64,000 nucleotides of DNA from Escherichia coli (GTDB taxonomy: Bacteria; Pseudomonadota; Gammaproteobacteria; Enterobacterales; Enterobacteriaceae), in assembly GCF_003334305.1 (NCBI RefSeq), contig NZ_QOWS01000018.1. The stretch is one strand, 5' to 3'. The position numbers and the translations under genes were made by a program. Below the pieces are notes generated by a model. The model was not told where the DNA came from and did not search any database. It was given only the letters and a program-made list of their open reading frames with translations. This document shows, piece after piece, positions 15,229-62,617 of this stretch (the stretch's first letter is position 1; each line of letters starts with the position of its first letter).

Positions 15229-15434
15229 TGAGTCACTCTCTATGACAGATGTAATTAATTAAGCAGCATAATGATAATGCGTAAGGGCACCCAGAAGTTT
15301 TACCCATCTTTACGCATTTGATCTGGAACAGGTTTAACAGCGGATTATCAGGTCATTAAGCAAATATAACGCCCTGAGAATTTCGACAGGCAAAAGAAAA
15401 AGGGGTTAGCATTTAGCTAACCCCTTATCTTATT

Positions 15435-17067: not shown

Positions 17068-18857
17068 GCACTCAGTACGAAACTCAGGGATACACCATCA
17101 ATAATGCCGGACGCCGCCTGGTGGTTGACCCGATTACGCGCATCGAAGGCCACATGCGCTGCGAAGTGAATATTAACGATCAGAATGTGATCACCAATGC
17201 CGTTTCCTGCGGCACCATGTTTCGCGGGCTGGAGATCATCCTGCAAGGGCGCGACCCGCGCGATGCGTGGGCGTTCGTTGAACGTATCTGCGGCGTCTGT
17301 ACTGGCGTACATGCCCTGGCTTCAGTTTACGCCATCGAAGATGCCATCGGTATTAAAGTGCCGGACAACGCCAATATCATCCGTAACATTATGCTGGCAA
17401 CGCTCTGGTGCCACGATCACCTGGTGCACTTCTATCAGCTTGCCGGGATGGACTGGATCGATGTGTTAGATGCGCTGAAAGCCGACCCGCGGAAAACCTC
17501 CGAACTGGCGCAAAGTCTCTCCTCATGGCCGAAATCATCCCCTGGCTATTTCTTCGACGTACAAAATCGCCTGAAGAAATTCGTTGAAGGCGGGCAGTTG
17601 GGGATCTTCCGCAATGGCTACTGGGGGCACCCGCAGTACAAACTGCCGCCAGAAGCTAACCTGATGGGCTTTGCCCACTACCTCGAAGCTCTCGATTTCC
17701 AGCGTGAAATTGTGAAAATCCACGCGGTCTTTGGCGGTAAAAACCCGCATCCAAACTGGATTGTCGGCGGGATGCCTTGCGCCATTAACATTGACGAAAG
17801 CGGCGCGGTCGGGGCGGTCAATATGGAACGCCTGAACCTGGTGCAGTCGATTATCACCCGCACGGCAGACTTCATTAACAACGTGATGATCCCCGACGCC
17901 TTAGCCATCGGTCAGTTCAACAAACCGTGGAGCGAAATCGGCACGGGTCTTTCTGATAAATGTGTCCTCAGCTACGGCGCATTCCCGGATATTGCCAACG
18001 ACTTTGGTGAGAAAAGTCTGCTGATGCCTGGCGGCGCGGTGATTAACGGCGACTTCAACAATGTGCTGCCAGTGGATTTGGTTGATCCGCAGCAGGTGCA
18101 GGAGTTTGTCGATCACGCCTGGTATCGTTATCCCAACGATCAGGTCGGGCGTCATCCATTCGATGGCATTACCGACCCGTGGTACAACCCCGGCGATGTC
18201 AAAGGCAGCGATACCAACATTCAGCAACTGAATGAACAGGAACGCTACTCGTGGATCAAAGCGCCACGCTGGCGCGGTAACGCGATGGAAGTGGGGCCGC
18301 TGGCACGCACGTTAATCGCTTATCACAAAGGCGATGCTGCGACCGTTGAGTCGGTCGATCGCATGATGTCGGCGTTGAACCTGCCGCTTTCCGGTATCCA
18401 GTCAACGTTAGGCCGCATTTTGTGCCGCGCGCACGAAGCGCAGTGGGCCGCAGGTAAGTTGCAGTATTTCTTCGACAAGCTGATGACCAACCTGAAAAAC
18501 GGCAATCTCGCCACTGCTTCCACGGAAAAATGGGAACCTGCAACCTGGCCGACAGAGTGCCGTGGTGTCGGTTTTACCGAAGCGCCGCGCGGGGCGTTAG
18601 GCCACTGGGCCGCCATTCGCGATGGCAAGATTGATCTCTATCAGTGCGTGGTGCCGACCACCTGGAACGCCAGCCCGCGCGATCCCAAAGGGCAGATTGG
18701 CGCTTATGAAGCGGCGCTGATGAACACCAAAATGGCGATCCCCGAGCAACCGCTGGAGATCCTGCGTACTCTGCACAGCTTTGACCCGTGCCTCGCCTGT
18801 TCAACACACGTGCTGGGCGACGACGGTAGCGAGCTGATCTCCGTGCAGGTGCGTTAA
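17064..18857 (+). CDS. hyaB: Hydrogenase-1 large subunit ([NiFe])
   Basis: 597-aa ORF with N-terminal RICGVC and C-terminal DPCLACSTH Ni-binding motifs. Overlaps the hyaA stop. Confidence 0.96.
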
Positions 18858-48421: not shown

Positions 48422-48446
48422 TTTGCATCAAACCTTGCCTGTTTTT
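48413..48446 (+). terminator. Rho-independent terminator downstream of yccE
   Basis: Stem CAGGCA (48413-48418) / TGCCTG (48436-48441) followed by a T5 run. Confidence 0.6.
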
Positions 48447-48560
48447 AAAGATGTATATAGAAAACAGGCGTTCAGCAAGCCATTTTGCGAACCTGTTCCC
48501 GGAAAAATGTCATATTTCTGTCACACTCTTTAGTGATTGATAACAAAAGAGGTGCCATGA

Positions 48561-50087: not shown

Positions 50088-50693
50088 TTAGCCGTTAAGT
50101 TTAACTGCCAGACCTGCGACATATTCCCCTTGATAACGAGCAATAGACAGTTCTTCCTGGCTTGGCTGGCGTGAGCCGTCACCGCCTGCGATGGTTGTTG
50201 CGCCGTACGGCGTACCGCCGCGAACCTGTGAAACGTCAAATAATTCCTGCGCTGCGTAGCCAATGGGGACAATTACCATGCCGTGATGCGCAAGGGTCGT
50301 CCAGGTTGAAGTAATAGTTTGTTCCTGACCGCCGCCAGTACCGGTGGAACTAAAGACGCTCGCCAGTTTTCCGTATAGTGCGCCGGAAGCCCACAGGCCG
50401 CCCGTCTGGTCGAGGAAGGTACGCATTTGACCGGACATGTTGCCAAAGCGGGTAGGTGTACCAAAAATAATGGCGTCGTAATCGGCCAGTTCTTGCGGGG
50501 TTGCAACCGGTGCAGTTTGCGTTTTACCGCCTGCTTTTTCAAATAATTGCGGCGGCATGGTTTCCGGTACACGCTTAACGACAACTTCTGCGCCATCCAC
50601 TTTGCTTGCACCCTCAGCGACTGCGCGTGCCATCGTTTCAATATGTCCGTACATGGAATAATAAAGCACTAGTATTCTTGCCTTAACACTCAT
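50088..50693 (-). CDS. wrbA: NAD(P)H:quinone oxidoreductase WrbA with an element-encoded substitute N-terminus
   Basis: The 201-aa ORF is identical in pattern to recalled WrbA from [21 protein letters not shown] onward. It begins MSVKARI instead of the K-12 MAKV. Those first codons and the GGAG RBS lie inside the inserted element (50670-50705). Confidence 0.9.
50663..50669. repeat. attL junction core (AAAGCAC)
   Basis: This is the last bases matching the wrbA sequence as recalled (GTGCTTT on the gene strand). The sequence diverges from 50670. Confidence 0.75.
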
Positions 50694-50744
50694 ATCATTG
50701 TTCTCCTGTTCAATGAACCACTTAGATAAGCATAGTCCGAAGAT

Positions 50745-52388
50745 ATGAAGCTGCTAGTGACATACATCAGGTGGAGTACTAAAGAGCAAGACTCAGGAGA
50801 CTCCTTAAGACGACAAACAAACCTCATTGATGCTTTCTACTCTAAGCACAAAAACGATTATTACCTTCTTCCTGCTCACAGATACGTTGATAAGGGTAAA
50901 TCTGGTTTTCACCAGCAACATAAGAATCAAGGTTCTGACTTCAGACGTATGTTTGAAAATGTTATGTCTGGGGCTATTCCAGAAGGTTCCCTGATTGTTG
51001 TAGAGAACTTTGACCGCTTCAGTAGGGCTGATATCGACACAGCTATAGATGATGTCAGGCAGATACTGAGGAAGGGAGTCTCTATACTGACTCTGGGAGA
51101 TGGTGAACTCTACGACAAGTCAGCATTAACAGACCCTGTGAAGCTGATTAAGCACATCATCATAGCTGAGCGAGCACATCAGGAATCTCTTGTTAAACAA
51201 AAGCGTATAGCTCAGGTCTGGAACCATAAAACACAGCTTGCAAGAGAACTTAAGAAGCCTATGGGTAAGCAAGCCCCCGGATGGTTAGAGCTATCAGAAG
51301 ACGGTTCACACTACATCGTTGATGAAGATAAAGCGTCACTGGTGAATATCATCTATGACAAGCGTCTTTCTGGTATGTCGATGTTTGCTATCTGCAAATG
51401 GCTAAACGAACAAGGTTACCCGACCATTAATCAGCGTAAGGTCAGAATATCCAAGACTAAGAAACCGGATGGTAACTGGTCAGCTTTAAGCGTTAAACAC
51501 ATCCTGACTTCACGAAGTGTATTAGGTTACCTTCCCGCTAAGATTTCTACAGAAGACCGTAAAACAGTGTTACGTGAAGAAATTGAAGGGTTCTATCCTC
51601 AGATTGTCACAGATTCTAAGTTTTACGCTGTACAGCAACTGTTAGAGGAAACAGGGAAGGGGAAAACATCCAGCGGTGACCACTGGTTATACGTGAACAT
51701 ACTGAAGGGGCTTATCCGTTGTAAGTGTGGGCTTGTAATGACTCCTACAGGGATACGTAAACCCGTTTATCAAGGTACTTACCGTTGCAATGGTAATAAG
51801 GAGTCCCGTTGTAGCTACGGTACAGTGTCCAGAAAGTTACTTGATACACAGCTTTGTAGTCGTCTGTTTAGCAAACTGTCACAGCTACACGATGAAGCTA
51901 CCGATACAGCTAAATTAGATGAACTACAAAGAAGATTAAACACCGTTGATGGTGAACTGGAAAAACTCACTGAGACGCTGATACAGCTTCCTAACATCAC
52001 TCAGATTCAAGAAGCACTACGGGTTAAACAGGAAGAAAAAGATGAACTGATAGTTCAGTTATCACGAGAAAAGGCGAGGGTAAAATCTGTATCAAGCTTG
52101 GATTTAAGCGGTCTTGATATGGAGTCTGTAGAGGGGAGAACTGAAGCCCAGATTATCATTAAGCGTCTGGTGAAAGAGATTGTTGTTTCTGGTAATGAAA
52201 AGCTGGTGGATATATATCTTCACAATGGAAATATGATTCGTGGTTTCCCTCTTGATGGTAAAGATGACCACACCTTAACGCTTGAAGAAGCAACCGATGA
52301 GATGCAGTCACTAGATGATATGCTTATTTTTGGTGAACCAGTAACAAGGATTTATCCTGCTGGTGATATGGAAGAGGTGGACGCTTAG
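50745..52388 (+). CDS. Large serine recombinase (integrase)
   Basis: 547 aa. N-terminal catalytic domain with YIRWSTKEQ (Ser nucleophile) and [11 protein letters not shown] recombinase domain, Cys-rich zinc-ribbon-like segment (CKCG...[14 protein letters not shown]) and a coiled-coil-like C-terminal region ([22 protein letters not shown]) follow. Confidence 0.88.
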
Positions 52389-53173
52389 TATTTTTTATTA
52401 GGGTTCACTGAGTACTTTTTAAGCTTTGAAGCTACTCGACCAGCGTTACTATTAGCATTGGTGACGTTGGTTTTTTCAGCTTCTGTTAAGTCTGAATAGT
52501 CCAGCTTCCAAGCCTTATTACACTTAATCTGAGCATCGAGAATATCATTTCTGATAGCTGGAGCGTAACCGGATACATCGCTAATACTCATTAGCTCTTT
52601 GCACGATAGCATAGGCGCGTTATTGCGTTCAGTGGTCACGTTACCTGCATTCTTCTTACTGGTCACACCACCATCATTCGTAGTCGCGGCTTTTCCAGTT
52701 GCAGCCGAGATATCAGTCTGCCCCACAACAGCTTTGAAGTTAATTTCCTGAAAAGTTAGTTGGATTCTTAATCCGTTTGAAATTCCAACATCTTTAGAGG
52801 CTTTAAAACTTGTGATAATGGAATCATCAATTTTAATTCCGTCTTTACAGATGACAGAAATAATCTGCTTCTGGTCACGCCAGTTTTCCAGAGTGTCAAT
52901 GAAGTTCTCTACTAATTGACCCTGACGAGTTAATAGTAAGCTTCCTTCATAACCAACTACAACGACACCACTGATAGTGATTGTTCTGGGTGCTCTTTGA
53001 ACATTATCTGTGACGGTTTGCCCTGATTGCATGTTCTGTGTAGTCACCTGCATAGGGCTATCAAATTCCATATTTTCAGTTGCTGATAAGGTTAAGAAGG
53101 CATCTACATTATCTCTTAAGTGGAAGTAAACGCCATCTTTGCCACTGTAGCGGATTTGATTGCTAAAAATCAT
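52385..53173 (-). CDS. Putative distal-tail/baseplate (Dit-like) protein
   Basis: Start set at ATG 53173, with AAGGAG six nt upstream, rather than the track's TTG at 53194. It lies immediately downstream of the tape-measure gene. The segment [34 protein letters not shown] resembles, from memory, the N-terminal pattern of Dit-like tail proteins. Not verified. Confidence 0.45.
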
Positions 53174-53190
53174 TAAATTCTCCTTTGATT

Positions 53191-53234
53191 TCAAAGGCTT
53201 AGTGTATTTTAATCATTTTTAACCAAGCCTTTGA
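53191..53234 (-). promoter_or_regulatory. 5'-leader hairpin preceding the Dit-like gene RBS
   Basis: Perfect 10-bp inverted repeat TCAAAGGCTT (53191-53200) / AAGCCTTTGA (53225-53234) with a 24-nt loop, between repeat cassette R1 and the RBS. Confidence 0.5.
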
Positions 53235-53253
53235 TATATAAGTATTTTCTCTG

Positions 53254-53323
53254 TTAAGCGTGAGCTACGTAAATTCTATTTTTCAGTGCGGGTATTAACT
53301 TTGCTTTATTCACGTAGAACACC
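53254..53323 (-). promoter_or_regulatory. Repeat cassette R1 (promoter-like) upstream of the Dit-like gene
   Basis: 70 bp, about 88% identical by eye to 55517-55586. On the gene strand it carries TAGAAT (complement of 53273-53278) with no good -35, plus CTACGTGAA and TACGTA boxes. Confidence 0.55.
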
Positions 53324-53329
53324 GTTAAA

Positions 53330-55498
53330 TCAATCATCTTCTGGGAATGATGAACTTAATAACGTAGCTTCTGCATATTGGTCGTAGATATTACTGCTAA
53401 AGGTCATAAAGCTGGTTTCATCTGGTTTAATGGCAACTTCACCACCAAGTGAAACTTTCACAGGCTCCTGAATACGCTTACTTAAAGCAGAGATTTCATC
53501 CCTCAGACCCTGAATATCTGCACTCGTTAATGCTGAATCTTGCTTAATGTTGTTTAATTCTGGATGATTGAATCTTGCAATATTCATTGTGGCATTGTTA
53601 AACAATTCACCCATTGAACTAAAAATTCTACTCCATCCTTCGTTAATCACATTCGGTTTATTAGGGTCACCAGAATACACAGGATTAAAGTCACTACCCA
53701 CACCTACCCCAGATGGATGCATATTAGCGTTTTTGACTACTTCCTGATTCATAAAATCCAGTGCTTTCTTCAATGCATATAAACCAAGAGTGACACCTCT
53801 GATTTGTGGAATCATTGAAGCTAATGCTAACGCTGTTTCATAACCGTCATCAGCATAACCAATTGCAAGAGCACTACCTACACCACCAGCTACACCTTTC
53901 AGTTTTCCACCACCTTTACCAGTAGCTACCTGACCAGCCACCTGATTAGCTCTTGTACCTAACGTTGTGATTGCTCTTGTCAGGTTCATAACCCCTGTAG
54001 TAGCACTGAATAGTGTCTTTGCAGATAACGCTATAGCAAGACCTTTGACGAAGTTGATAAATCCATCACCGACTTCATCAAGTAGCTTTCGCTTAGTGTC
54101 ATCAAGGCTGTAATAGGTCTTCTTAATCTGTAGAATCCAGCCTTCAAGGTGATTGTTAAAGATACGGATGTCATCTACACCAGCTTTAAGCATGTCGATA
54201 AGTCCACCGATAGCATCACCAGCGATAGAAGAACTCATACCCATTTCACTAAGCAGGTTACTCAGGCTGGATAAGAAGCCATTTAGCTCATCCTGTGAAC
54301 CTGAGAAGATTTTCACCATCGTATCATCCCAGTTGTTAGCCAGTTTCCCTAAAGCTGTCTGAGTGCTCTTAGCGACTTCAGCCCAGCCACCCGCTTTATC
54401 AATCATCAAGCCCATCTGTTTAGCGACTTTAGGGAGAGTATCACTACTTAAAATCTTCCCGTCTTTCATCGCTTTATCAAGCTCTGTAGCAGTCATACCC
54501 AGTGCTTCAGCGAATAGCTTAAATGCACCAGCCATACGGTCACCTAACTGACCACGAAGCTCTTCAGCCTGAATCTTGCCCTTGCTCGCCATCTGCTCAA
54601 ATGCTTTCAAAATGCCGTTTAGCTCATCGTTAGAAAGCCCCATTAAGCGACTCATAGCCGTTGCATTACCAAATAGCTCCTGTGTCTGTTCCTGTGACAT
54701 AGAACCCTGAGCACCTGCTGCAAACTTAGCGTAGCTTGATAGCCCTTCAGAGATATTAAGACCTGTCTTGTCTGCTAAATTTCGAATAAATACCTCAGCT
54801 TCAGATGCTTTATCACCAAGTACAAACTTAGCGGCTCTCTGTGCGGAATCTCGTTTAAGACCTGCATTCATGATGGCCTTGTAAGCGTTAAGAGCACCCA
54901 TCACAGAGTAAAATGCACCAGATAACTTGATTGCATTGCTTGCAAGATTATTAAATGCGTCGCTTGTATTGTTAATGCTGGTGGATGTATGACCTTTAGC
55001 TTTAGCAATTGCTTCTCTGACTGAAGCATTTAACTGAGTCAGCTTCTCATTGAATTTTGAAGAATCCATTGACCCAGCTTTAGCAGATAGCCCGTAAAAC
55101 TGAGATTTGATGTATTTCTGCAAAATAGGGTCAAAGCCTTTTAGCTTAGACATATTAGCTGAGTAAGCCGCTGTGATTGCTCTGTTGCCGCTAATTCGTG
55201 GCTGTCTTGGTTGTCTAAGTGGCTTTAAAGTGTCATCAATTTCCGTTTTAATCTTAAACGCTCTAGTGTTTTTAAGACGCTGCTCAATCTTGGAAACAGT
55301 TTTATCGACATTCTTTTCCATTAGTTTGAGAGAATCATTTAAAGGCGTAGGGTTAACTCTGAATGCCTTATTTAGTCGTTTCTCAATTCTTGATGCGATT
55401 TGCATCGTTTGTTTCTCGGCTTTTTCCAAGCCTTTTAAAACTTTCTGAGAGCTAAAACTTAGCTCAATCAAAAAATCATCAACTTTAAATTGTGCCAT
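53330..55498 (-). CDS. Phage tail tape-measure protein
   Basis: 722 aa, Ala/Gly/Leu-rich and predicted largely helical. The segment LNGILKAFEQMASKGKIQAEELRGQLGDRMAGAFKLFAEALGMTATELDKAMKDGKILSSDTL matches the conserved tape-measure core domain as I recall it (TIGR02675-type). A Gly-rich tract GKGGGKLKGVAGGVG follows. RBS is AAGAGGTG. Confidence 0.85.
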   Translation of the reverse strand: MAQFKVDDFLIELSFSSQKVLKGLEKAEKQTMQIASRIEKRLNKAFRVNPTPLNDSLKLMEKNVDKTVSKIEQRLKNTRAFKIKTEIDDTLKPLRQPRQPRISGNRAITAAYSANMSKLKGFDPILQKYIKSQFYGLSAKAGSMDSSKFNEKLTQLNASVREAIAKAKGHTSTSINNTSDAFNNLASNAIKLSGAFYSVMGALNAYKAIMNAGLKRDSAQRAAKFVLGDKASEAEVFIRNLADKTGLNISEGLSSYAKFAAGAQGSMSQEQTQELFGNATAMSRLMGLSNDELNGILKAFEQMASKGKIQAEELRGQLGDRMAGAFKLFAEALGMTATELDKAMKDGKILSSDTLPKVAKQMGLMIDKAGGWAEVAKSTQTALGKLANNWDDTMVKIFSGSQDELNGFLSSLSNLLSEMGMSSSIAGDAIGGLIDMLKAGVDDIRIFNNHLEGWILQIKKTYYSLDDTKRKLLDEVGDGFINFVKGLAIALSAKTLFSATTGVMNLTRAITTLGTRANQVAGQVATGKGGGKLKGVAGGVGSALAIGYADDGYETALALASMIPQIRGVTLGLYALKKALDFMNQEVVKNANMHPSGVGVGSDFNPVYSGDPNKPNVINEGWSRIFSSMGELFNNATMNIARFNHPELNNIKQDSALTSADIQGLRDEISALSKRIQEPVKVSLGGEVAIKPDETSFMTFSSNIYDQYAEATLLSSSFPEDD

Positions 55499-55516
55499 TG
55501 TTCATATTTCACCTCT

Positions 55517-55586
55517 TTAAGCGTGAGCTACGTAAATTCTATTTTTCAGTGTGGGTATTAGCTTTACAGATTTCACGTAGCACACA
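55517..55586 (-). promoter_or_regulatory. Repeat cassette R2 (promoter-like) upstream of the tape-measure gene
   Basis: Second copy of the 70-bp cassette. TAGAAT (complement of 55536-55541) lies about 38 nt upstream of the TMP ATG, directly downstream of a terminator. Confidence 0.55.
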
Positions 55587-55616
55587 TAGGATTCGATAGA
55601 AGACTATCTCATATAC

Positions 55617-55656
55617 AAAAAAGGAGAGTTACCGATGTCACTCGATAATCTCTCCC
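55617..55656 (-). terminator. Rho-independent terminator ending the 236-aa/71-aa transcription unit
   Basis: On the minus strand, GGGAGAGATTA...TAACTCTCC forms a hairpin (stems at 55650-55655 and 55623-55628) followed by a T6 run (55622-55617). Confidence 0.7.
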
Positions 55657-55699
55657 GTAGATTTTTACCCAACCAATTCTATTAGAAGCTAATCTCAAA

Positions 55700-55915
55700 T
55701 TAATGGTAAACGTAAGAATACATCCCATCATCACCTAAAATCTGTGCGTCACATGGTAATTTATCTAAGCACCATGAAGGAATCTTACGTACCTTTGGTT
55801 TATGTGAGGTGATAACTTGATGCTGATTTTTAATTCGTAGCTTTGGTTTAGTCTGAAGCTTTAAGTTCTCACAAACAGACTTAATAAGTTCATAGCGTTC
55901 TGTTAAATCAATCAT
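55700..55915 (-). CDS. Hypothetical protein (71 aa)
   Basis: ORF MIDLTERYELIKSVCENLKLQTKPKLRIKNQHQ... with RBS AAGAGGTGG. No family recognised. Confidence 0.6.
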   Translation of the reverse strand: MIDLTERYELIKSVCENLKLQTKPKLRIKNQHQVITSHKPKVRKIPSWCLDKLPCDAQILGDDGMYSYVYH

Positions 55916-55938
55916 TCACCACCTCTTTTAATTCATAG

Positions 55939-56649
55939 TTAAAGTGCCTTGCTATATTTCTGAGAAATCTTCACTAACTGCTCAATATCAGCCTGCATAG
56001 CAATCTTCTTCTGCGTTTCATATGCAGAAATAAGCTCTTTCATAGCCTGAAGCTCTCTTGAGAGATACAACTTAACATTTTCAAGTTGCTTGTTACGTGA
56101 TGCCAAGATGTTCTGTCTGGCAAGTTCAGCGAGTTCTTCATCGCTCTTATTAGTCGTGTAAATAAACTGACCAGCACCCCTTGAAGCTTTAACCATCTTC
56201 ACAATTCGATATCCAGCAGGAAGACTACTAATCACGGCTGCGACGTTTTCTTGAAAAGTACCAAAACCATCATTGTCTTCGTATGTGAAGTAAACATACG
56301 GCTTCTGTGACAATTCATCCTGAATCTCAAATTCTGACGGCTCAATAGCTGATTGCATCAGGGTAACTTTACTGTAAGCATCATCTAGTTTAATACGCTG
56401 TGCTTTTAGCAGTGGGTAATATTCACGCTCAAGCTCAAGTAATGCTTCAGTTTTGCATACATCAGGCATCTCTTGAGGCTCAGGAGACACAAAGATGATT
56501 TCCTTTGGTGACATTCGGATTTCTTGCTCAAGCTTAATTCTTTCATCGTGTTCTTTACGCTGAATAGCGATAGCTGGATGTTCAGTCTGTGGCGACCAGT
56601 CACCGAAGCTATCAATCACTTTGCCATTAATGTAAATATCATTTGTCAT
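55939..56649 (-). CDS. Hypothetical protein (236 aa) with a coiled-coil-like C-terminus
   Basis: ORF MTNDIYINGKVIDSFGDWSPQTEHPAIAIQ... with RBS GAGGAA. The C-terminal 70 aa are heptad-rich (LENVKLYLSRELQAMKELISAYETQKKIAMQADIEQL). No family recognised. Confidence 0.7.
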   Translation of the reverse strand: MTNDIYINGKVIDSFGDWSPQTEHPAIAIQRKEHDERIKLEQEIRMSPKEIIFVSPEPQEMPDVCKTEALLELEREYYPLLKAQRIKLDDAYSKVTLMQSAIEPSEFEIQDELSQKPYVYFTYEDNDGFGTFQENVAAVISSLPAGYRIVKMVKASRGAGQFIYTTNKSDEELAELARQNILASRNKQLENVKLYLSRELQAMKELISAYETQKKIAMQADIEQLVKISQKYSKAL

Positions 56650-56679
56650 TGTTTTTTCCTCTTCTAAGCTAAAGTATTT

Positions 56680-56765
56680 CAGTTTTTAAAAAGCACACCT
56701 GACAGCCTATCTAAACTTAGAAGAGACTTAAAAGGCGGTTTGCCAAGTATGCTTTTTAAAAGCTG
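56680..56765 (-). promoter_or_regulatory. Long inverted repeat in the leader of the 236-aa gene
   Basis: Arms CAGTTTTTAAAAAGCACAC (56680-56698) and GTATGCTTTTTAAAAGCTG (56747-56765) are complementary at about 17 of 19 positions, separated by about 48 nt. Confidence 0.5.
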
Positions 56766-56801
56766 AAAAAGCCCTAGATAACTAAAACGCTATAAAGGGC
56801 T
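56765..56801 (-). terminator. Attenuator-like hairpin plus T-run inside the leader
   Basis: On the minus strand, AGCCCT (56801-56796), a 20-nt loop, AGGGCT (56775-56770), then TTTTT (56769-56765). Located about 115 nt upstream of the 236-aa gene start. Confidence 0.4.
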
Positions 56802-57008
56802 AAGGTGAAGAAATTAAAACATCTAAAGGATTCAATAACGAATGAACAAAGACTTTTCGAGATAGCCTCTCAGGTTGTATAAGAGGCCATGTAGCGAAAA
56901 GCATTGCACCTTTCAGAATGTTCGGTATAGAACATACCTCACCAACTCAGAATATCCATCCATCGGATTATTGAAATAAATAAGAGAGAAATTCTCTCTA
57001 TAATTAAA

Positions 57009-57037
57009 ATTATGTCATGCTTAAGGTTATTTGTCAA
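57009..57037 (-). promoter_or_regulatory. Sigma70-type promoter (minus strand)
   Basis: TTGACA (complement of 57032-57037), a 17-bp spacer, then CATAAT (complement of 57009-57014). Followed at about +3 by the palindrome AGAGAGAA-A-TTCTCTCT (56983-56999). Confidence 0.55.
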
Positions 57038-57062
57038 CAGCTTTTTAACAGATTGGTAACAT

Positions 57063-57128
57063 TTATACTTTAATAGATGCACCTGCAATCATACCAATCA
57101 ACACAAAACAGAGAATCACCAATTCCAT
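57063..57128 (-). CDS. Candidate 21-aa hydrophobic peptide
   Basis: Hand-translated: MELVILCFVLIGMIAGASIKV. Its ATG overlaps the TAA of the upstream gene (TAATG), suggesting translational coupling. Confidence 0.4.
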   Translation of the reverse strand: MELVILCFVLIGMIAGASIKV

Positions 57129-57451
57129 TAATGCACCACCTTCGAATCCGTAACCAGAATATTATCGCTGTACAAAATTGCTATAGCCGCCTTGAGATAT
57201 TTTTCAGGGCTAACGCTGTATTTGTTCGTTTGCTCGACAACCAATCTTTTCATGTTGCTGTCTTTAATTGGTAGCATCATTCGAGGCTCGTTAAACTCCA
57301 CCGACTGAATAAAGTCAGAGATGCTTTCCGCATTATCAGTCATTAACTCTAACAACTTATCAAAGTCAATGCTAACACCTACATCAGTGAAAGCCTGAAT
57401 CATCATGGCGGTGTCGGTATCAATAAAAATCTGTAATTCGTAATTGTTCAT
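57128..57451 (-). CDS. Hypothetical acidic protein (107 aa)
   Basis: Start set at ATG 57451 (MNNYELQIFIDTD) with AAGGAG upstream. The track's TTG start at 57484 is rejected. No family recognised. Confidence 0.65.
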   Translation of the reverse strand: MNNYELQIFIDTDTAMMIQAFTDVGVSIDFDKLLELMTDNAESISDFIQSVEFNEPRMMLPIKDSNMKRLVVEQTNKYSVSPEKYLKAAIAILYSDNILVTDSKVVH

Positions 57452-57606
57452 TTTTAAAATCTCCTTTTTACCAGACCTCCTCAATCGCTCTGTAACGAGC
57501 TAAACAGTCTTTTTCAGGGGTAGCCTGTACAGTGGTATTACCCACCCTAAAATAAGATAGTTTTTTGCGTCAGAATGCGATTGAGAGCGTCTGAGAAGCT
57601 GTTTTT

Positions 57607-57894
57607 CTAATTTCTCTTAAAGTCTCGGACTTGCATAAGATTTTTTGGTCTGGTATCGGCTCTGTTACCATTTCGATGGATAATTTGCTTGTTGGATTGA
57701 TAGCCATGATAAAGAAACCAGACAACATATTTCACGTAGAAAGTATATCGGCCTATATTAAATGTTTTGTTGCCGTAGTCGTCGGTGTTTATCGTGACTG
57801 ACTCTCCATCAGACCAGCACAGGGAATCACTGGATTCATCATAGATAAGGTGTTCTGCAAAATATCTTCTAACATCTTCATTCCAAGGTTTCAT
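57607..57894 (-). CDS. HNH-like small protein (degenerate motif)
   Basis: 95 aa. YVVWFLYHGYQSNKQIIHRNGNRADTRPKNL resembles the HNH_3-type pattern (aHRlvw...G..idHiNGn..DNR..NL), but the usual Asp preceding the His and the DNR Asn are substituted. Confidence 0.5.
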   Translation of the reverse strand: MKPWNEDVRRYFAEHLIYDESSDSLCWSDGESVTINTDDYGNKTFNIGRYTFYVKYVVWFLYHGYQSNKQIIHRNGNRADTRPKNLMQVRDFKRN

Positions 57895-58106
57895 AAAACC
57901 TCCTCACCCCAATAACCTAATTCAATCTTGTGACGCTCAAACCATTCCGGTTTAACTGCTGTTTTCAGTACTTCATTTGGGCCAATGGCTTTAATGAAAA
58001 TATCTTTTGAGTTATGGATGTCACCGAATCCGTTTCCTTCAATCAGGAGGTCGGAGATGTAGCGAATCATTTTATCCGTGTGGTATTCAAAGGTAACGCA
58101 TAGCAT
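57891..58106 (-). CDS. Hypothetical protein (71 aa)
   Basis: ORF coupled at both ends: TAATG with the upstream gene and ATGA with the downstream gene. No family recognised. Confidence 0.6.
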   Translation of the reverse strand: MLCVTFEYHTDKMIRYISDLLIEGNGFGDIHNSKDIFIKAIGPNEVLKTAVKPEWFERHKIELGYWGEEVL

Positions 58107-58387
58107 TAAACCTCCAGAGACAGCTTGTGAATCTTAAGACTCAATAGACGGGCAATATCAATTTTAAAGCCGTTAAGTCCCTTCAAAGTATCTAAAGCGT
58201 CCTGAGTAATTCGGATGTGTTTACGACCTTTAGAGACTGGATATTTAAGTAAATCCGACTCAGTAACCTCTTTAGCAATTGCAAGCTGCATAACAGTCTG
58301 ATGAGGTAAGTTAGTAGCTCGTTTAATTCTGGCAAGCTCGTTAAAAGCTTCCTCTGAAATGCGGGTTAAAGTGTGTTTGTTTTTCAT
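58106..58387 (-). CDS. Putative tandem ribbon-helix-helix DNA-binding protein (93 aa)
   Basis: Two internal segments look like an RHH beta-strand plus helix: KHTLTRISEEAFNELARIKR and RKHIRITQDALDTLKGLNG. Inference from the pattern only. Confidence 0.4.
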   Translation of the reverse strand: MKNKHTLTRISEEAFNELARIKRATNLPHQTVMQLAIAKEVTESDLLKYPVSKGRKHIRITQDALDTLKGLNGFKIDIARLLSLKIHKLSLEV

Positions 58388-58388
58388 T

Positions 58389-58943
58389 TTAAAATTCCTC
58401 TGTAACTAAATACGGGTCAAATTCAAAGTCTGGTTCACTGGTTGTAAGGCTGATATTTCCAACTTCCGCATGATGATTAATTGTCTCAATAACTTTCATG
58501 CAAATAGTGGCTAAGTTAGCGCAATATTTATCACTTGGTAATTCGTAGCTAAGTCTGGTTGCTTGTCTTTGAAGATGGCTCGTCACTGTGCTTGAACTAA
58601 TCTCATCAAGACTTCGCAGTAAATAAAAAACCTTCCGGTGATAATTATCTCTTCCAAGACTGCGACAAGTACCGATAATTACATCTTCAATTCGTGGCGG
58701 TAATTGCTCGTAAGAATCAAAGCCCATCAAGAAAGTTTTTAAAGTATTCTCTTTTTCTTTGCGTGCTGGCATAAATCTGTCTCGTGGCGTAATGCTACGA
58801 ATGACCGCTTCAATGTTCTTACGTTCGGATTTGCTAAAGGTTGGGACTTCGTAGCTGGTGGGGGTGTCTGTGTGGCTGTAACCGTTGTGTCTGTTGCGTT
58901 CTCTTGATGCCTGAAGCATCGCTCTAAATTCTCTGTCGTTCAT
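58389..58943 (-). CDS. Hypothetical protein (184 aa), first gene of the leftward operon
   Basis: ORF MNDREFRAMLQASRERNRHNGYSHTD... directly downstream of the promoter at 58994-59022. No family recognised. Confidence 0.65.
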   Translation of the reverse strand: MNDREFRAMLQASRERNRHNGYSHTDTPTSYEVPTFSKSERKNIEAVIRSITPRDRFMPARKEKENTLKTFLMGFDSYEQLPPRIEDVIIGTCRSLGRDNYHRKVFYLLRSLDEISSSTVTSHLQRQATRLSYELPSDKYCANLATICMKVIETINHHAEVGNISLTTSEPDFEFDPYLVTEEF

Positions 58944-58993
58944 TCATAAGCTAGTCCTTATAATTGTTAATTCTCTGTTAACTTATATATACA

Positions 58994-59022
58994 ATACTAG
59001 CATTTTCAAAGACTAATGTCAA
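58994..59022 (-). promoter_or_regulatory. Sigma70-type promoter of the leftward operon
   Basis: TTGACA (complement of 59017-59022), a 17-bp spacer, then TAGTAT (complement of 58994-58999). Confidence 0.6.
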
Positions 59023-59029
59023 GCATTTT

Positions 59030-59059
59030 TTAACATTTCATTAACATCTGTGGTATAAT
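59030..59059 (+). promoter_or_regulatory. Divergent extended -10 promoter (rightward)
   Basis: TTAACA (59030-59035), then TGG-TATAAT (TG at 59051-59052, TATAAT at 59054-59059). Back-to-back with the leftward promoter. Confidence 0.55.
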
Positions 59060-59186
59060 GGTTCTATGGGGAGAGTAAAATATAAAGGCGTGGCTATGAG
59101 GTTTATTCGATAGGGGTTGGTACAAGCCCAACCAACCGAATCAACTATGTATGTCACATGGTATTGCATTGCACACAGGAAATTTA

Positions 59187-59363
59187 ATGGTAAATCTCCC
59201 TCCTGAACTGGGGTCACCTGATGTATGGGCTGGTGGAGGTATCGGGCTGATTGCAGGTCTGTTACTCCGCTACGTCCTTGTCAGAGTGCTTGTTGTGTTC
59301 CGATTGTTCGGTCGTACATGGACGCTTGACCTTAAGGATAATGAGCACACAGAACCCCGTTAA
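59187..59363 (+). CDS. Candidate small membrane protein (58 aa; 70 aa if started at 59151)
   Basis: MVNLPPELGSPDVWAGGGIGLIAGLLLRYVLVRVLVVFRLFGRTW... contains one hydrophobic helix. AGGAA lies 5 nt upstream of ATG 59187, while the ATG at 59151 has no RBS. The local composition is more GC-rich than its neighbours. Confidence 0.45.
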   Translation: MVNLPPELGSPDVWAGGGIGLIAGLLLRYVLVRVLVVFRLFGRTWTLDLKDNEHTEPR

Positions 59364-59406
59364 GCTCCCTTCAAATCCCCCTGTACGAGATGGCATAGGG
59401 GTGTCT

Positions 59407-59422
59407 TTAGCATTTTGTGCTA
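59407..59422. promoter_or_regulatory. Operator-like inverted repeat TTAGCA-N5-TGCTA
   Basis: TTAGCATTTTGTGCTA. The 18-nt box TCTTTAGCATTTTGTGCT (59404-59421) recurs at 60678-60695, and each copy is followed by (A)CTTGACA(G/A)AA. Confidence 0.45.
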
Positions 59423-59483
59423 TCTATTAAAAAATAACTTGACAGAACCGGAAAGCTGTATCTATCAGGTATTCACCTCTCTG

Positions 59484-59559
59484 ACAGTAACTTCTAAAAG
59501 TTCTTATTTTTCAATGAGTTGTAATCACCCATATATAGAGAACTGACAAGTCTCTTCAC
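59484..59559 (+). repeat. 76-bp direct repeat, copy 1
   Basis: ACAGTAACTTCTAAAAGTTCTTATTTTTCAATGAGTTGTAATCACCCATATATAGAGAACTGACAAGTCTCTTCAC. About 89% identical to copy 2, and the last 31 nt are identical. Confidence 0.9.
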
Positions 59560-59578
59560 AATTAACTCTGTAACCTTA

Positions 59579-59654
59579 ACAGTGATTTCTAAAAATGCTT
59601 ATTTTTCAATAAGTTGTAATTAGCCATATATAGAGAACTGACAAGTCTCTTCAC
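59579..59654 (+). repeat. 76-bp direct repeat, copy 2
   Basis: ACAGTGATTTCTAAAAATGCTTATTTTTCAATAAGTTGTAATTAGCCATATATAGAGAACTGACAAGTCTCTTCAC. The period is 95 bp. Confidence 0.9.
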
Positions 59655-59971
59655 GGAGAACTTCCTGGACTCACTAAGATACAAGGCGATAACCCCAGAA
59701 AGGGAGAGCCACCTTCTAATTGGTATTGTTATGAGGATGCTTCATCCGAATCATCTACCAATCCCTAAACCGACTTCTTAAACAATCTTTACAGACCCCG
59801 TTCACCAGTCTCAATATTTTTATTTCTCGCTCTTCGTTTGTTGCTCGTTTCTATTATTGAGGGGGTTTGAAAAACCTCTGTAAAATAACCCTTCCAGTAA
59901 AAAGCGAATAACCCCAGAGAGGGGGAATCGCCTCTTTAACATTCTCATAATCAGTGCTCTATATGAGAATT

Positions 59972-60640
59972 TCAGCCCAACCTTTGAACAATCTTGTAAG
60001 TGGTGCTTAGAGGCATTCTTAGCGATTCTGCGATGCTCTTGACGGATTGCCCTTGGCCATGCAGTTTAATCAGCCTGTCAAGCGTCTGTGCATCGTGTAT
60101 ATGAGGTCTTCCACGTAAACCACCCCTGTTAACCACGGCAAGTAAAAGCATTGTGTCGCCACAATAGATTGTTTGTGTAACTTCAACCTTCGGTTTACGG
60201 GGTGTGTTCCTGTATATCAAAACGCAACTTGCAAACGGTGAACGCACTACAACACCTTTCTTCCCTGCTGGTGGAAGGTATTTGACTGCTCGGTGTAACG
60301 TTCGAATCTCATGCAGAAAGGGGTTTGTATATACACACCGAAGCCAGTAAGTTGTCTTTGACCTGTGCGGAACCAGACATACACACACATCAGCTTCATG
60401 GGATTTTAGGAGGAACCTTTCAGCCATGCTAAACGGCGGGTTAACGAAGACCCGTTCACCAACCCATGATTGATTGTGAATATCATCGGTGAACCGTGGC
60501 AACAATGCGTCATGCTCAGTTGCAGCACCATCCATCGAAAAACCAAATTCACGGTGTAGGTTACGAAATAAACGATACGGTGTACGCCAGTCATCAGAAC
60601 CACCATGATAACGACCGACATTGATTATTGGATGTGACAC
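59972..60640 (-). CDS. Phage Dam-type N6-adenine DNA methyltransferase fused to a C-terminal HTH
   Basis: 222 aa with a GTG start. SDDWRTPYRLFRNLHREFGFSMDGAAT and VFVNPPFS (NPPF catalytic motif) fit the phage Dam family (pfam05869-like, from memory). The C-terminal GQSVKSIAESLRMPLSTTYKIVQRL looks like a resolvase-type HTH. Confidence 0.75.
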   Translation of the reverse strand: MSHPIINVGRYHGGSDDWRTPYRLFRNLHREFGFSMDGAATEHDALLPRFTDDIHNQSWVGERVFVNPPFSMAERFLLKSHEADVCVCLVPHRSKTTYWLRCVYTNPFLHEIRTLHRAVKYLPPAGKKGVVVRSPFASCVLIYRNTPRKPKVEVTQTIYCGDTMLLLAVVNRGGLRGRPHIHDAQTLDRLIKLHGQGQSVKSIAESLRMPLSTTYKIVQRLG

Positions 60641-60677
60641 AAGCGAAGCGCCCCTCTTAGTATATTTCTTAATCGTC

Positions 60678-60724
60678 TCTTTAGCATTTAGTGCTTTTTG
60701 TTAAGTTTAGCACTTTTTGCTAAA
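60678..60724. promoter_or_regulatory. Two operator-like inverted repeats upstream of the methyltransferase gene
   Basis: TTAGCATTTAGTGCT (60681-60695) and the perfect TTTAGCA-CTTTT-TGCTAAA (60706-60724), followed by TTGACA at 60735-60740. Confidence 0.45.
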
Positions 60725-61142
60725 GACAAAACACTTGACAAAATGGTAAGATTGTTCACATGACCTTACTTAACAGATTCTTAAGAGCTTTGAAACGAAC
60801 TGTTTAACAAGGTCACTACCTCTGGTCTTATCGTTCCCTCTCTTCTTGGTAGTTCTGTTAAGTATCTTTTCAGGTATCTCTTACAGTCACTGTTAAGATA
60901 GAACCTACCTTCGGTTTCATGGTTCTCTTCCTCCCGTTAAATATCCCTTCACAGTCAGACTAAATAACACCTCTGTAGTTTCTTGGTAGAATCTTTCAAG
61001 GTAACTTAACTCTGAGTTTATGAAGTTGACCTTAGTCAATGTTTGTGAAGGTGTTACAGAGCATGTTCTCTAGGTCTGTGTAGCTCACTAAGCGAGAGAG
61101 GGGATATGTGACCATAGGGGAACCCCTCCTGTTAAAAGTTTC

Positions 61143-61170
61143 TTGATGTTATCATCACAATATGTATAAT
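61143..61170 (+). promoter_or_regulatory. Sigma70-type promoter (plus strand) in an ORF-free region
   Basis: TTGATG (61143-61148), a 16-bp spacer, then TATAAT (61165-61170). Confidence 0.55.
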
Positions 61171-61176
61171 CACCAA

Positions 61177-61337
61177 CTGTACAGACACCTTAACGGTTTC
61201 TCTACACCTCACTATGGCTAGGTAGGGTATGGTTTAGCTTGGTACGGCTAGGTTAGGTCTGGTTTGGTTAGGTATGGGTGGATTGTCGTAGCCACGTTAA
61301 AAATCGACTTATAGGGACTCTTTCGGGAGTCCTTTTT
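61177..61337 (+). ncRNA. Candidate ~160-nt small RNA with tandem 15-nt G/T-rich units
   Basis: Bounded by the promoter at 61143-61170 and the terminator at 61315-61337. It contains no ORF longer than 5 codons. Five consecutive 15-nt units begin at 61216, 61231, 61246, 61261 and 61276 (GGCTAGGTAGGGTAT / GGTTTAGCTTGGTAC / GGCTAGGTTAGGTCT / GGTTTGGTTAGGTAT / GGGTGGATTGTCGTA). Confidence 0.35.
61315..61337 (+). terminator. Rho-independent terminator (plus strand)
   Basis: GGACTC (61315-61320), loop TTTCGG, GAGTCC (61327-61332), then TTTTT (61333-61337). Confidence 0.65.
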
Positions 61338-61541
61338 AGTTTGTATAAAATCTGTACAGGAGTTATCAGGCTTCTAAAATTTTTATAAAAAATAATCAGA
61401 CCTCTTCTAAGCCTCTTCAACCAAATCTTTCGAAAATATCTGACAGATGTCTGTAGCTGCTAAGTACCCGTCACACCAGCTATGTGACCCCCTTGGCAAA
61501 AAAGCCAAATATCAGCTACATCCATGTAACTATTCAGTAAC

Positions 61542-62093
61542 TTATTTAGCAAGTCTGTAATAAGTTGCTCTAGAGATTCCTAACTCTTCCTGAATCTGCA
61601 ACCTCGTCTTACCTTGTGAAATAAGCGTCTGTACAGCCTCTGAAGAAGCCTTTACAGGCCTCCCCATATGTACCCCTTCAGCTTTAGCACGTTCAATACC
61701 AGCCTTTCTACGCTCTGCTATCAAGCTTCTTTCAAGCTGTGCCAACGTTGACATAATGCCTAACATTGCTTCACCCATAGCGCTTGATAAGTCAAACCCT
61801 TCTCTAAGGCTGATAACTGTCACACCTTTAGCCTGTAGCGCTTTAACCGTTGATAACACATCAATTGTGTCACGTCCAAGACGGTCTACAGCTACCACAA
61901 CTACGGTGTCACCTTCTCGTGCATAAGCTAACAAACTACTGAAACCGTTTCTTAAAGAAGCTTTGACAGAACCACTGACAGCTTCATCAGTGAACCATTT
62001 AGCAATGTTGTACCCTGCCTCTTCAATTTGCATTTGCTGGTTAGTGATGGATTGGTCATCTGTACTCACCCTGCAATATCCAAGTATCGCCAT
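61542..62093 (-). CDS. Small serine recombinase (resolvase/invertase family)
   Basis: 183 aa. MAILGYCRVSTDDQ (Ser nucleophile), VVAVDRLGRD, an E-helix LAQLERSLIAERRKAGIERAKAEG, GRP, and a C-terminal HTH ISRATYYRLAK. Confidence 0.9.
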   Translation of the reverse strand: MAILGYCRVSTDDQSITNQQMQIEEAGYNIAKWFTDEAVSGSVKASLRNGFSSLLAYAREGDTVVVVAVDRLGRDTIDVLSTVKALQAKGVTVISLREGFDLSSAMGEAMLGIMSTLAQLERSLIAERRKAGIERAKAEGVHMGRPVKASSEAVQTLISQGKTRLQIQEELGISRATYYRLAK

Positions 62094-62107
62094 ACATCCC
62101 CCTTAGA

Positions 62108-62231
62108 AGTCTCAAAAGTTAGTCTCATAAGTTTAGCTGTCTCATAATCCAAAAACAACCTTTTGAGACTACTTGAGGGTGCATTCTACCGTTACGTTGA
62201 AAGTGTCTCAAAAGGAAGTCCTTTTAAGACT
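62108..62231. promoter_or_regulatory. res-like cluster of recombinase binding sites
   Basis: There are six GTCTCA / T(G/A)AGAC half-sites. They include a 28-bp inverted pair TGTCTCAAAAGGAAGTCCTTTTAAGACT (62204-62231), a 33-bp inverted pair TGTCTCATAATCCAAAAACAACCTTTTGAGACT (62138-62170), and AGTCTCAAAAGTTAGTCTCATAA (62108-62130) next to the recombinase start. Confidence 0.6.
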
Positions 62232-62427
62232 GGTTATGAAGGAGCTATGAAGATTTTAGGAGGGTAACTATAACCATCACTTTCTAACTTTCACGTAGGA
62301 AATCGTTAAGTTTCTTGATAGTTACACCATGTGACCAACTATCTATATATCGTTATATAGCCCTGTATATAACACTTTTCTAGGAGTCGAGAGAGGGACG
62401 ACTAACACGATACAGTTTACCCTGAAA

Positions 62428-62447
62428 AGAGACTTCACAGATTCTCT
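62428..62447. repeat. Inverted partial third copy of the 76-bp repeat core
   Basis: AGAGACTTCACAGATTCTCT compares with the reverse complement of AGAGAACTGACAAGTCTCT (59537-59555 and 59632-59650). It is flanked by TCTCTATATAT and TTCAATAAGTT, which are also shared with the repeats. Confidence 0.7.
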
Positions 62448-62610
62448 ATATATTTCAATAAGTTAGGCTAAAAAGAGACTATACCGATACTGTATAGAAT
62501 CTGTGTAGAATTGCTTAGATACTTGGAAAAATGCCTTTAAATTGAATAGGTACTAACCTGTTTATGTCCTGTTATTAACAGGTAGTTGAATGTACGTGTT
62601 TAGCTATGTA

Positions 62611-62617
62611 AAAGCAC
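62611..62617. repeat. attR junction core (AAAGCAC)
   Basis: Identity with the native wrbA 5' end as recalled resumes here (AAAGCACCAGAACTTTAGCCAT is the complement of ATGGCTAAAGTTCTGGTGCTTT). Confidence 0.75.

Follow-up and report, generated by a model that had tools for sequence, protein, structure and literature searches.

The 64,000-nucleotide stretch of Escherichia coli DNA analyzed here (RefSeq assembly GCF_003334305.1, contig NZ_QOWS01000018.1; hereafter the window) is 100% identical to the chromosome of E. coli strain A7 (NZ_CP028767) and holds, between wrbA and ymdF/rutG, a low-GC block that contains an integrated element. Alignment to the empty K-12 locus placed the ends of the element at 50670-62617, with a 7-bp identity (AAAGCAC) at both junctions. 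Its genes include a large serine recombinase (LSR), a tape measure protein (TMP) and a protein that we assign, by analogy with a solved phage baseplate, to the tail tube initiators (TI). A small HNH endonuclease, a Dam-type methyltransferase with a C-terminal helix-turn-helix (HTH), a small serine resolvase and seven unassigned open reading frames (ORFs) complete the set. Here, we report the element and its relatives, an apparently undescribed and very common family, and argue that it is probably a satellite of virulent phages, of a kind only recently established with the PLE satellites.

Integration interrupts wrbA (window positions 50088-50745) within its first codons. The element provides a replacement start and the ORF is still open, the rebuilt WrbA N terminus reading MSVKARI... 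where the uninterrupted protein has MAKVLVLYYS. The initial annotation, which was made from the letters of the window, had delimited the element as 52385-58943; this is only the minus-strand gene block. It had also described both att junctions and both recombinase genes as intact, with which the sequence is consistent, and the catalytic motif of the LSR (YIRWSTKEQ) is preserved along with its Resolvase, Recombinase and Zn_ribbon domains. An 11,514-bp Logan contig was considered as a circular form of the element and rejected, because it is the integrated element with 30 and 23 nt of wrbA on its two sides; its element-like size results from a break in the assembly graph, not from a circle.

Tape measure and tube initiator genes

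Both tail genes were recovered well above the profile cut-offs (TMP, PF20155, 78.9 bits against a cut-off of 41; TI, PF21821, 73.4 bits against a cut-off of 24.2). The 262-aa ORF that the initial annotation had set aside for examination corresponds to the Dit_like gene as translated from the ATG at 53173; a TTG at 53194 would give 269 aa. In tblastn searches of the phage collection, the TI protein had a full-length counterpart, ~73% identical, in ~250 Felixounavirus genomes, in all of which the corresponding gene lies directly after the TMP gene (wV8 gp73 and gp74), the order also seen in the element. Over 519 nt (52640-53158), the TI gene is 93-95% identical at the nucleotide level to ~190 Felixounavirus genomes. 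Residues 1-195 are near-invariant (about 95% identical to wV8 gp74), and the C-terminal ~70 aa are variable, with a conserved end, SVNPNK(K/R)Y.

The element TMP aligns end to end with Felixounavirus TMPs at 29-32% identity. Common to element and phage are the N-terminal ~45 aa, the TMP_3 core and a C-terminal LLSSS(Y/F)PEE motif, which in this element reads LLSSSFPEDD; the middle has diverged and carries a block that is common to the elements and absent from the phage. TMPs of the elements are 682-726 aa long, compared with 742 aa in the phage, and the TMP and TI genes, which abut in the phage, are separated in the element by a 135-nt structured leader. The nearest phage relatives of the two genes are solely virulent 85- to 90-kb Felixounavirus myophages without integrases.

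The role of the TI was read from the cryo-electron microscopy structure of phage Bas63, in which the gene after TMP (gp18) encodes the baseplate tube initiator. There, a hexamer adapts the threefold hub to the sixfold tube, each subunit having a tube-like core and a ~100-residue C-terminal arm running through the baseplate, and the last 25 residues of the TMP contact the hub and the puncturing apparatus (the baseplate spike) (PMC12609058). By analogy with Bas63 gp18, the Dit-like protein of the element is assigned as a tube initiator. The tail core of the element and that of the Felixounaviruses (Bas63 gp17/gp18, wV8 gp73/gp74) share Pfam families, gene order, near-equal lengths, the TI N-terminal region and the TMP termini; they differ in that the element genes lie in a 12-kb chromosomal island and in that the C-terminal extension of the TI has been replaced. 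Conservation of the TI core and of the TMP termini suggests that the surfaces docking onto other tail parts have been kept, with the rest free to vary. On these alignments, TMP and TI look like working myophage tail-core genes, neither siphophage genes nor decaying remnants. The siphophage origin proposed initially thus gives way to a Felixounavirus one, with a Felix O1-like myovirus as the candidate helper.

Gene content and relatives of the element

Relatives of the element core (80-95% nucleotide identity) were found in 488 of 5,426 complete E. coli genomes, at up to four per genome and always on the chromosome; 75 genomes have wrbA-type ends. Five further members were examined, three at yecE (MS10495, JB2 and O157:H7 E32511), one at wrbA (from a sequencing-run assembly) and one in Salmonella enterica at a third site. 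The family uses three or more integration sites, with different serine integrases. All members examined share one gene order: LSR, TI, TMP, a small ORF, the 236-aa ORF, a ~107-aa ORF, the HNH gene, small ORFs, a ~184-aa ORF and a 1-kb ORF-free region, followed by accessory genes. The five relatives measure 11.3-12.1 kb without insertion sequences, and the wrbA copies 11.1-12.3 kb; a longer, phage-like relative was not seen among the relatives examined from the 488 genomes.

Divergence is uneven along this shared order. The LSR is 34-35% identical to that of the yecE relatives, a low value due to the different integration sites; TMP is 39-47% and TI 65-76% identical between elements, the 184-aa protein 63-80%, and the regulatory/HNH block up to 99%. 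Three backbone blocks (52641-59784, 60722-60941 and 62266-62584) frame two accessory slots, occupied here by the Dam-type methyltransferase and the resolvase and in relatives by an HNH-AP2 nuclease or other genes. Beyond E. coli, the 236-aa family occurs in Citrobacter, Pluralibacter, E. albertii and Salmonella. The 184-aa family, with 1,083 clusters across Escherichia, Shigella and Salmonella, includes E. fergusonii among its hosts. Scans of genome contigs and metagenomes with single proteins returned close or fragmentary loci only, and conjugation genes were absent from the element family. The O157 yecE copy was compared with SpLE2 of strain Sakai and is not that element, SpLE2 being an unrelated CP4-44-like island.

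The ORFs of the element were searched against Pfam, PHROGs and NCBIfam, with PADLOC for defense systems and Rfam for RNA (Table 1). The searches returned the LSR, TMP, Dit-like, HNH, Dam-HTH and resolvase genes where the initial annotation had placed them. For its RHH-like protein the outcome is weaker: the 93-aa ORF is possibly a ribbon-helix-helix regulator, and its profile match is DndE-like. The remaining ORFs gave no match to terminase, portal, capsid, tube, sheath, lysis or replication families in Pfam, PHROGs, NCBIfam or PADLOC, in agreement with the minimal content reported initially, and no RepA_N or other replication domain was found in any element ORF (Pfam, PHROGs, NCBIfam). PADLOC matched the Dam gene alone, as an orphan methyltransferase, with nothing else below E 0.007. 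The seven unassigned ORFs (71, 236, 107, 71, 93 and 184 aa plus the small unannotated ORF), searched as a concatenate, had zero matches in 50,697 phage genomes, and no match was found for the unassigned ORFs among PDB sequences.

Table 1. Features of the element, in window coordinates
Feature	Position	Strand	Evidence and remarks
attL crossover-region identity, AAAGCAC	50663-50669		Within 5' codons of wrbA; comparison with empty K-12 site
Whole integrated element	50670-62617		11,948 bp, GC 0.402; comparison with empty K-12 site
LSR (integrase), 547 aa	50745-52388	+	PF00239, PF07508, PF13408; phrog_95, E 5e-78
Predicted tail tube initiator (TI; Pfam Dit_like)	52385-53173 (ATG) or 53194 (TTG)	-	PF21821, E 2e-20
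Leader of TI gene	53183-53322	-	69-nt cassette at 53254-53322, then second hairpin at 53183-53242
TMP, 722 aa	53330-55498	-	PF20155, E 5e-22; TIGR02675, E 4.5e-16; phrog_4036, E 8e-90
Second 69-nt cassette copy	55517-55585	-	Directly upstream of TMP start
Terminator-like hairpin and T-run	55617-55657	-	Between 71-aa ORF and TMP cassette; read from sequence; kept in relatives
71-aa ORF just upstream of TMP	55700-55915	-	Variable like TMP, 48-63% identity among elements
236-aa family marker protein	55939-56649	-	No Pfam, PHROGs or NCBIfam family match
107-aa ORF	57128-57451	-	No family match
Small HNH_3 endonuclease, 95 aa	57607-57894	-	PF13392, E 1.7e-8
71-aa ORF	57891-58106	-	No family match
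93-aa ORF	58106-58387	-	Weak DndE-like match only, E 0.006; 86-96% conserved
184-aa ORF, first gene of leftward operon	58389-58943	-	No family or PDB match
Back-to-back sigma-70-like promoters	58994-59059		Leftward TTGACA-17-TAGTAT; rightward TTAACA-18-TATAAT with TG
Conserved unannotated 58-aa single-transmembrane ORF (MVNLPPELGSPDVWAGGGIGLIAGLLL...)	59187-59363	+	92-96% identical in four elements
Two tandem 76-nt repeats, 91% identical	59484-59654		In 1-kb ORF-free region
Phage-derived palindromic patch	59717-59784		51 nt 100% identical to Felixounavirus NBEco005/NBEco004
Dam-type N6-adenine methyltransferase with C-terminal HTH, accessory slot 1	59972-60640	-	PF05869, E 3e-13; in some relatives only
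Conserved non-coding backbone block	60722-60941		Two phage-like patches, 60804-60842 and 60845-60873
Small serine resolvase/invertase, 183 aa, accessory slot 2	61542-62093	-	PF00239, E 6e-42
Conserved non-coding right-end block	62266-62584		84-87% identical between elements with different integrases; phage-like patch at 62338-62369
attR copy of AAAGCAC	62611-62617		Comparison with empty K-12 site

Structure prediction was applied to two of the unassigned proteins. For the 184-aa protein, AlphaFold2 without an alignment gave an unusable model (pLDDT, 40). The 236-aa protein, modeled from a 46-sequence alignment, reached a moderate pLDDT of 73; the prediction combines two long helices with a small alpha/beta domain and, at the C terminus, a helix of 66 residues. 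The model had no Foldseek match at E < 0.01 in PDB or BFVD, its coiled-coil matches being non-significant, and on that ground the protein is not an HK97 capsid, a terminase or a known initiator fold. As far as it was taken, the structural check thus leaves the minimal gene content standing. RefSeq/PGAP labels the 236-aa family "transposase" in thousands of records, a name with no profile, sequence or fold support.

Among the smaller ORFs, the HNH_3 protein is 98-99% conserved in two relatives and replaced in a third by a 41%-identical version. The 71-aa and 107-aa ORFs do not resemble wV8 gp71/gp72 in sequence and were set aside as tail-chaperone candidates; for the 71-aa ORF at 55700-55915, a role like that of a chaperone or of Rta (see below) is speculation. 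The 58-aa transmembrane ORF could be a type I toxin-like or lysis-modulating peptide.

Some 21-nt inverted sites, 90% complementary to each other, flank the small resolvase gene at 60854-60874 and 62421-62441, so the 1.5-kb segment between them might be invertible. A related motif, CTGAMAAGNNNCTTMACMG, has four copies in the window, all in non-coding DNA of the element (also at 59543-59561 and 59638-59656); the pattern was derived from the very sequences scored, which inflates its significance. Outside the element, yccE and its surroundings (46500-48500) have a GC content of 0.35-0.38, well under the chromosome average, and are probably another acquired stretch, unrelated to the element.

Non-coding sequences and phage-like patches

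The promoter pair is highly conserved in the family, its leftward member reading into the operon that opens with the 184-aa gene and its rightward member into the 58-aa ORF. It stands within an ORF-free region of ~1 kb (58944-59971) that contains repeats, of which the 76-nt tandem pair may be guessed to serve as an origin or operator. Direct-repeat cassettes of ~70 bp, pointed out initially, are real: the copies at 53254-53322 and 55517-55585 are 69 nt long and 88% identical. A cassette lies upstream of TI in all four elements compared and upstream of TMP in only two of the four. In this element, TMP is preceded by the terminator-like hairpin and then a cassette, and TI by a cassette and then the second hairpin. 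Each cassette can form a 9-bp stem (CTACGTGAA...TTTACGTAG), and the copy of one relative changes a G·U pair to G-C. Such a pattern may point to an RNA-level control element of the tail genes, and we regard the cassettes as putative regulatory leaders, not as deletion scars or as the deletion substrates first suggested. As a helper late promoter the cassette was rejected, because no similarity to wV8 intergenic or promoter regions was found. Rfam gave no match.

In composition, the elements equal the phage and are far from the host: their GC content of 0.386-0.402 compares with 0.389 for wV8 and 0.516 for the host. Phage-like DNA also extends beyond the tail genes. A 51-nt imperfect palindrome (59717-59767) is 100% identical to DNA of phages NBEco004 and NBEco005 (E 2e-16 against 2.3 Gb). 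The match lies in the interior of a 651-bp repeat that the NBEco005 record carries at each end, which implies a direct terminal repeat; direct terminal repeats have been reported for such phages from PhageTerm results (PMC11737134). Four or five further patches of 25-40 nt (59673-59704, 59900-59924, 60804-60842, 60845-60873 and 62338-62369) match the 1.7-kb terminal non-coding region of the phage, and shuffled controls gave almost no matches. The same search with the O157 relative was dominated by IS629 and uninformative.

Within the family, the palindrome occurs once in this element and twice in MS10495 (positions 15286-15343 and 17559-17614 of the locus examined); JB2 has it close to attR, and the O157:H7 copy lacks it. 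It was first considered as an essential pac site, a role downgraded because it is missing or relocated in relatives. The palindrome may be a helper-specific packaging or regulatory mimic, or a small mobile palindrome common to phage and element. A non-coding stretch of accessory slot 2 (61227-61308) is 77% identical to two wV8 intergenic regions near DR_4 repeats (wV8 60704-60780 and 59305-59349). Terminator-like hairpins come after it in the element, and it probably represents a terminator or promoter of phage origin brought in with the cargo.

Comparison with known satellites and interpretation

We favor, with moderate confidence and from comparative sequence evidence, the reading that the element parasitizes virulent Felix O1-like myophages (Felixounavirus, Ounavirinae) in the manner of a satellite and builds chimeric tails. 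The grounds are the homology of the tail genes, their preserved interfaces, the structure of the family, its composition and the phage-derived cis patches. Upon helper infection, the element would be excised and amplified by helper functions, its TMP and TI would replace the phage proteins in the tail core to give chimeric, slightly shorter tails, and helper capsids would take up its DNA, to the detriment of the helper. The TMP/TI pair may serve transmission, interference with the helper, or both. This mechanism is the one demonstrated for the PLE satellites of ICP1.

PLEs, most of which integrate by a large serine recombinase, are satellites of the virulent myophage ICP1, which triggers their excision, replication and transduction and is itself restricted by them. 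Their gene products include a TMP, a tail assembly chaperone and a baseplate hub protein, and Mathur, Boyd et al. showed their chimeric tails experimentally (Nature 2026, PMC12987554). In PLE virions, the satellite TMP and hub protein replace those of ICP1 and tails are shorter by ~10 nm; PLE11 has a small protein, Rta, that acts through the helper TMP to block assembly of the helper tail (PMC12987554). Compared by published description, PLE and the present element are alike in logic and in gene classes. Each is a small island with an LSR and att sites whose helper, proposed in our case, is a virulent myophage; each carries its own shorter TMP and a baseplate-core protein, both diverged homologues of helper proteins; each has a large ORF-free region with repeats; and almost all other genes are orphans. 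The small HNH nuclease and the transmembrane ORF of the element belong to the same classes as NixI and LidI.

They differ in size (~11.5-12 kb for the element versus 17-18 kb for PLE, a third smaller), in the baseplate gene (a tube initiator versus a hub protein) and in the lack, in the element, of a recognizable tail chaperone or capsid-remodeling gene and of a RepA_N (or Pol I-type) initiator, which in PLE adjoins the ORF-free origin region. They also differ in the host (Escherichia/Salmonella) and in the candidate helper (Felixounavirus), and no sequence relationship of the unassigned ORFs to PLE emerged from the searches of the phage collection and of PDB sequences. A scheme like that of Rta, in which the element blocks the helper tail and relies on a TMP that resists the block, is speculation, though it would fit the fast divergence of TMP and of the small ORF preceding it.

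A second point of comparison is the set of 224 putative E. coli satellites of Barth et al. (2023), which carry capsid, decoration, TMP, baseplate and RepA_N initiator genes (PMC10448857). These too are ~10-kb chromosomal islands with TMP followed by a "baseplate" gene and an integrase at one end; they lack most tail genes and are thought to parasitize virulent coliphages. They differ from the present element in having a major capsid protein, a decoration protein and a RepA_N initiator that matches phage Odn-like nucleases, none of which was detected here, and mostly tyrosine integrases at tRNA or lysR sites. Strain A7 itself carries one of these putative satellites at another locus (CP028767, 1,011,648-1,037,040). 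By BLASTP, its TMP and baseplate proteins have no similarity to the TMP and TI of the element, and no element protein matches that locus. The surrounding region (NZ_CP028767, 1,011,000-1,038,000) shows a P4-like satellite (Psu, Delta, Icd-like, primase) next to the Barth-type element, which has capsid, TMP-like and baseplate genes and a tyrosine integrase and is inserted in a lysR gene. With the element at wrbA, one genome thus holds three different satellite-type elements.

P4-like satellites, PICIs and cf-PICIs resemble the element in being small, integrated and equipped with accessory-gene hotspots, and they depend on a helper for particles, as is proposed for the element; tmp genes have been noted in some cf-PICIs (PMC12987554, Extended Data Fig. 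10). None of their signatures was detected in the element, whether those of P4-like satellites (Sid/Psu/Delta/alpha-primase), of PICIs (AlpA, Pri-Rep, TerS) or of cf-PICIs (capsid, portal, protease, connectors). The initial annotation had offered two readings, one of which was a satellite that supplies its own TMP and distal tail protein. That reading stands in outline on the comparative evidence, with a tube initiator in place of the distal tail protein. Its remark that the combination was unfamiliar from PLE and other satellites is outdated in view of PMC12987554 and PMC10448857. In the literature searched, neither this element family nor any satellite of Felix O1-like phages is described.

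Several observations weigh against a packaged satellite. The predicted attP junction, GCTATGTAAAAGCAC joined to TAGTATTCTTGCC, is absent from IMG/VR and from complete genomes, and the IMG/VR matches to the element are prophage calls out of isolate genomes, so they give no viral-particle support. Profile searches, and structure prediction for two ORFs, did not recognize a replication initiator, a packaging protein or a capsid-size factor. Since the 69-nt cassette has no counterpart in the wV8 genome, helper-driven expression of the tail genes is unsupported. The palindrome, as a discrete insertion that is variable or missing, is not a universal cis-essential signal. Finally, an 11.5-kb element is ~1/7 of the helper genome, to be set against terminal-repeat packaging into an 88-kb head.

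The main rival reading is that the element is a defense island and nothing more, its TMP and TI acting as dominant-negative or decoy subunits that poison Felix O1-like tail assembly, without packaging and with spread by generalized transduction or recombination. Tail assembly is a known target of defense, as with Tai, Tab and Rta (PMC11364771, PMC10884400, PMC12987554). In addition, the searches detected nothing with a role in packaging, replication or the capsid, and not every element has the terminal-repeat patch. The TMP middle and TI C terminus diverge fast (39-47% and 65-76% between elements), as in an arms race. We nevertheless think this explanation unlikely, if still a serious competitor. 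PADLOC models gave no match, and presence at several sites, with different serine integrases and in several genera, without a conjugation gene, argues for efficient horizontal transfer of the element itself. A narrow size range, phage-like GC and patches from the phage terminal region would be unneeded for a pure defense gene pair. The conserved contact surfaces of TMP and TI fit incorporation into working tails, although poisoning is compatible with them too. Defense is moreover not exclusive of a satellite, as PLE does both.

The second of the initial readings, a deletion remnant of a complete temperate phage that retained both att sites, accounts for phage tail genes beside an integrase and could invoke direct repeats able to mediate deletions. 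It is very improbable, because every relative examined among the 488 genomes has the same ~11- to 12-kb content and synteny, with many same-size copies and none longer. In addition, the ORFs are intact and conserved, the closest relatives of the tail genes lie in a strictly virulent lineage with no temperate members, and seven other ORFs lack homologues among phage genomes. Capture of the tail genes for a host or element function unrelated to a helper, such as a membrane-active TMP in competition or DNA uptake, also seems improbable to us, if less so than decay. Most genes are without assigned function, and the conserved small membrane ORF and the constitutive-looking sigma-70 promoter pair would suit such a role. 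A TMP and a tube initiator, however, form no structure without hub, tube and sheath, and a TI core still 93-95% identical in nucleotide sequence to circulating phage alleles implies continuing interaction and recombination with those phages.

If the element is a satellite of Felix O1-like phages, a wider proposal follows that we judge about evenly balanced between true and false: that undescribed minimal satellites of Felix O1-like phages, ~11.5 kb long and devoid of capsid, packaging or recognizable replication genes, reside in ~9% of complete E. coli genomes and in some members of Salmonella, Shigella and Citrobacter. These would reprogram only the tail core (TMP/TI), borrow cis sequences from the helper terminal repeat, have invented the chimeric-tail strategy of PLE independently and form a hidden determinant of the outcome of Felix O1-type infection. 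Tail-core replacement would then be a recurrent satellite strategy, found in three unrelated lineages (PLE, Inny/Muut-linked elements and this family), and E. coli would gain a tractable counterpart of PLE-ICP1 for studying satellites of virulent phages. The gene wrbA is the classical integration gene of Stx2 phages, and an element occupying it may interfere with or influence Stx phage integration there. Felix O1-like phages serve to type Salmonella and E. coli and are applied against both in biocontrol and therapy; if confirmed, a frequent chromosomal parasite able to hijack or sabotage their tails would affect host range, efficacy and gene transfer.

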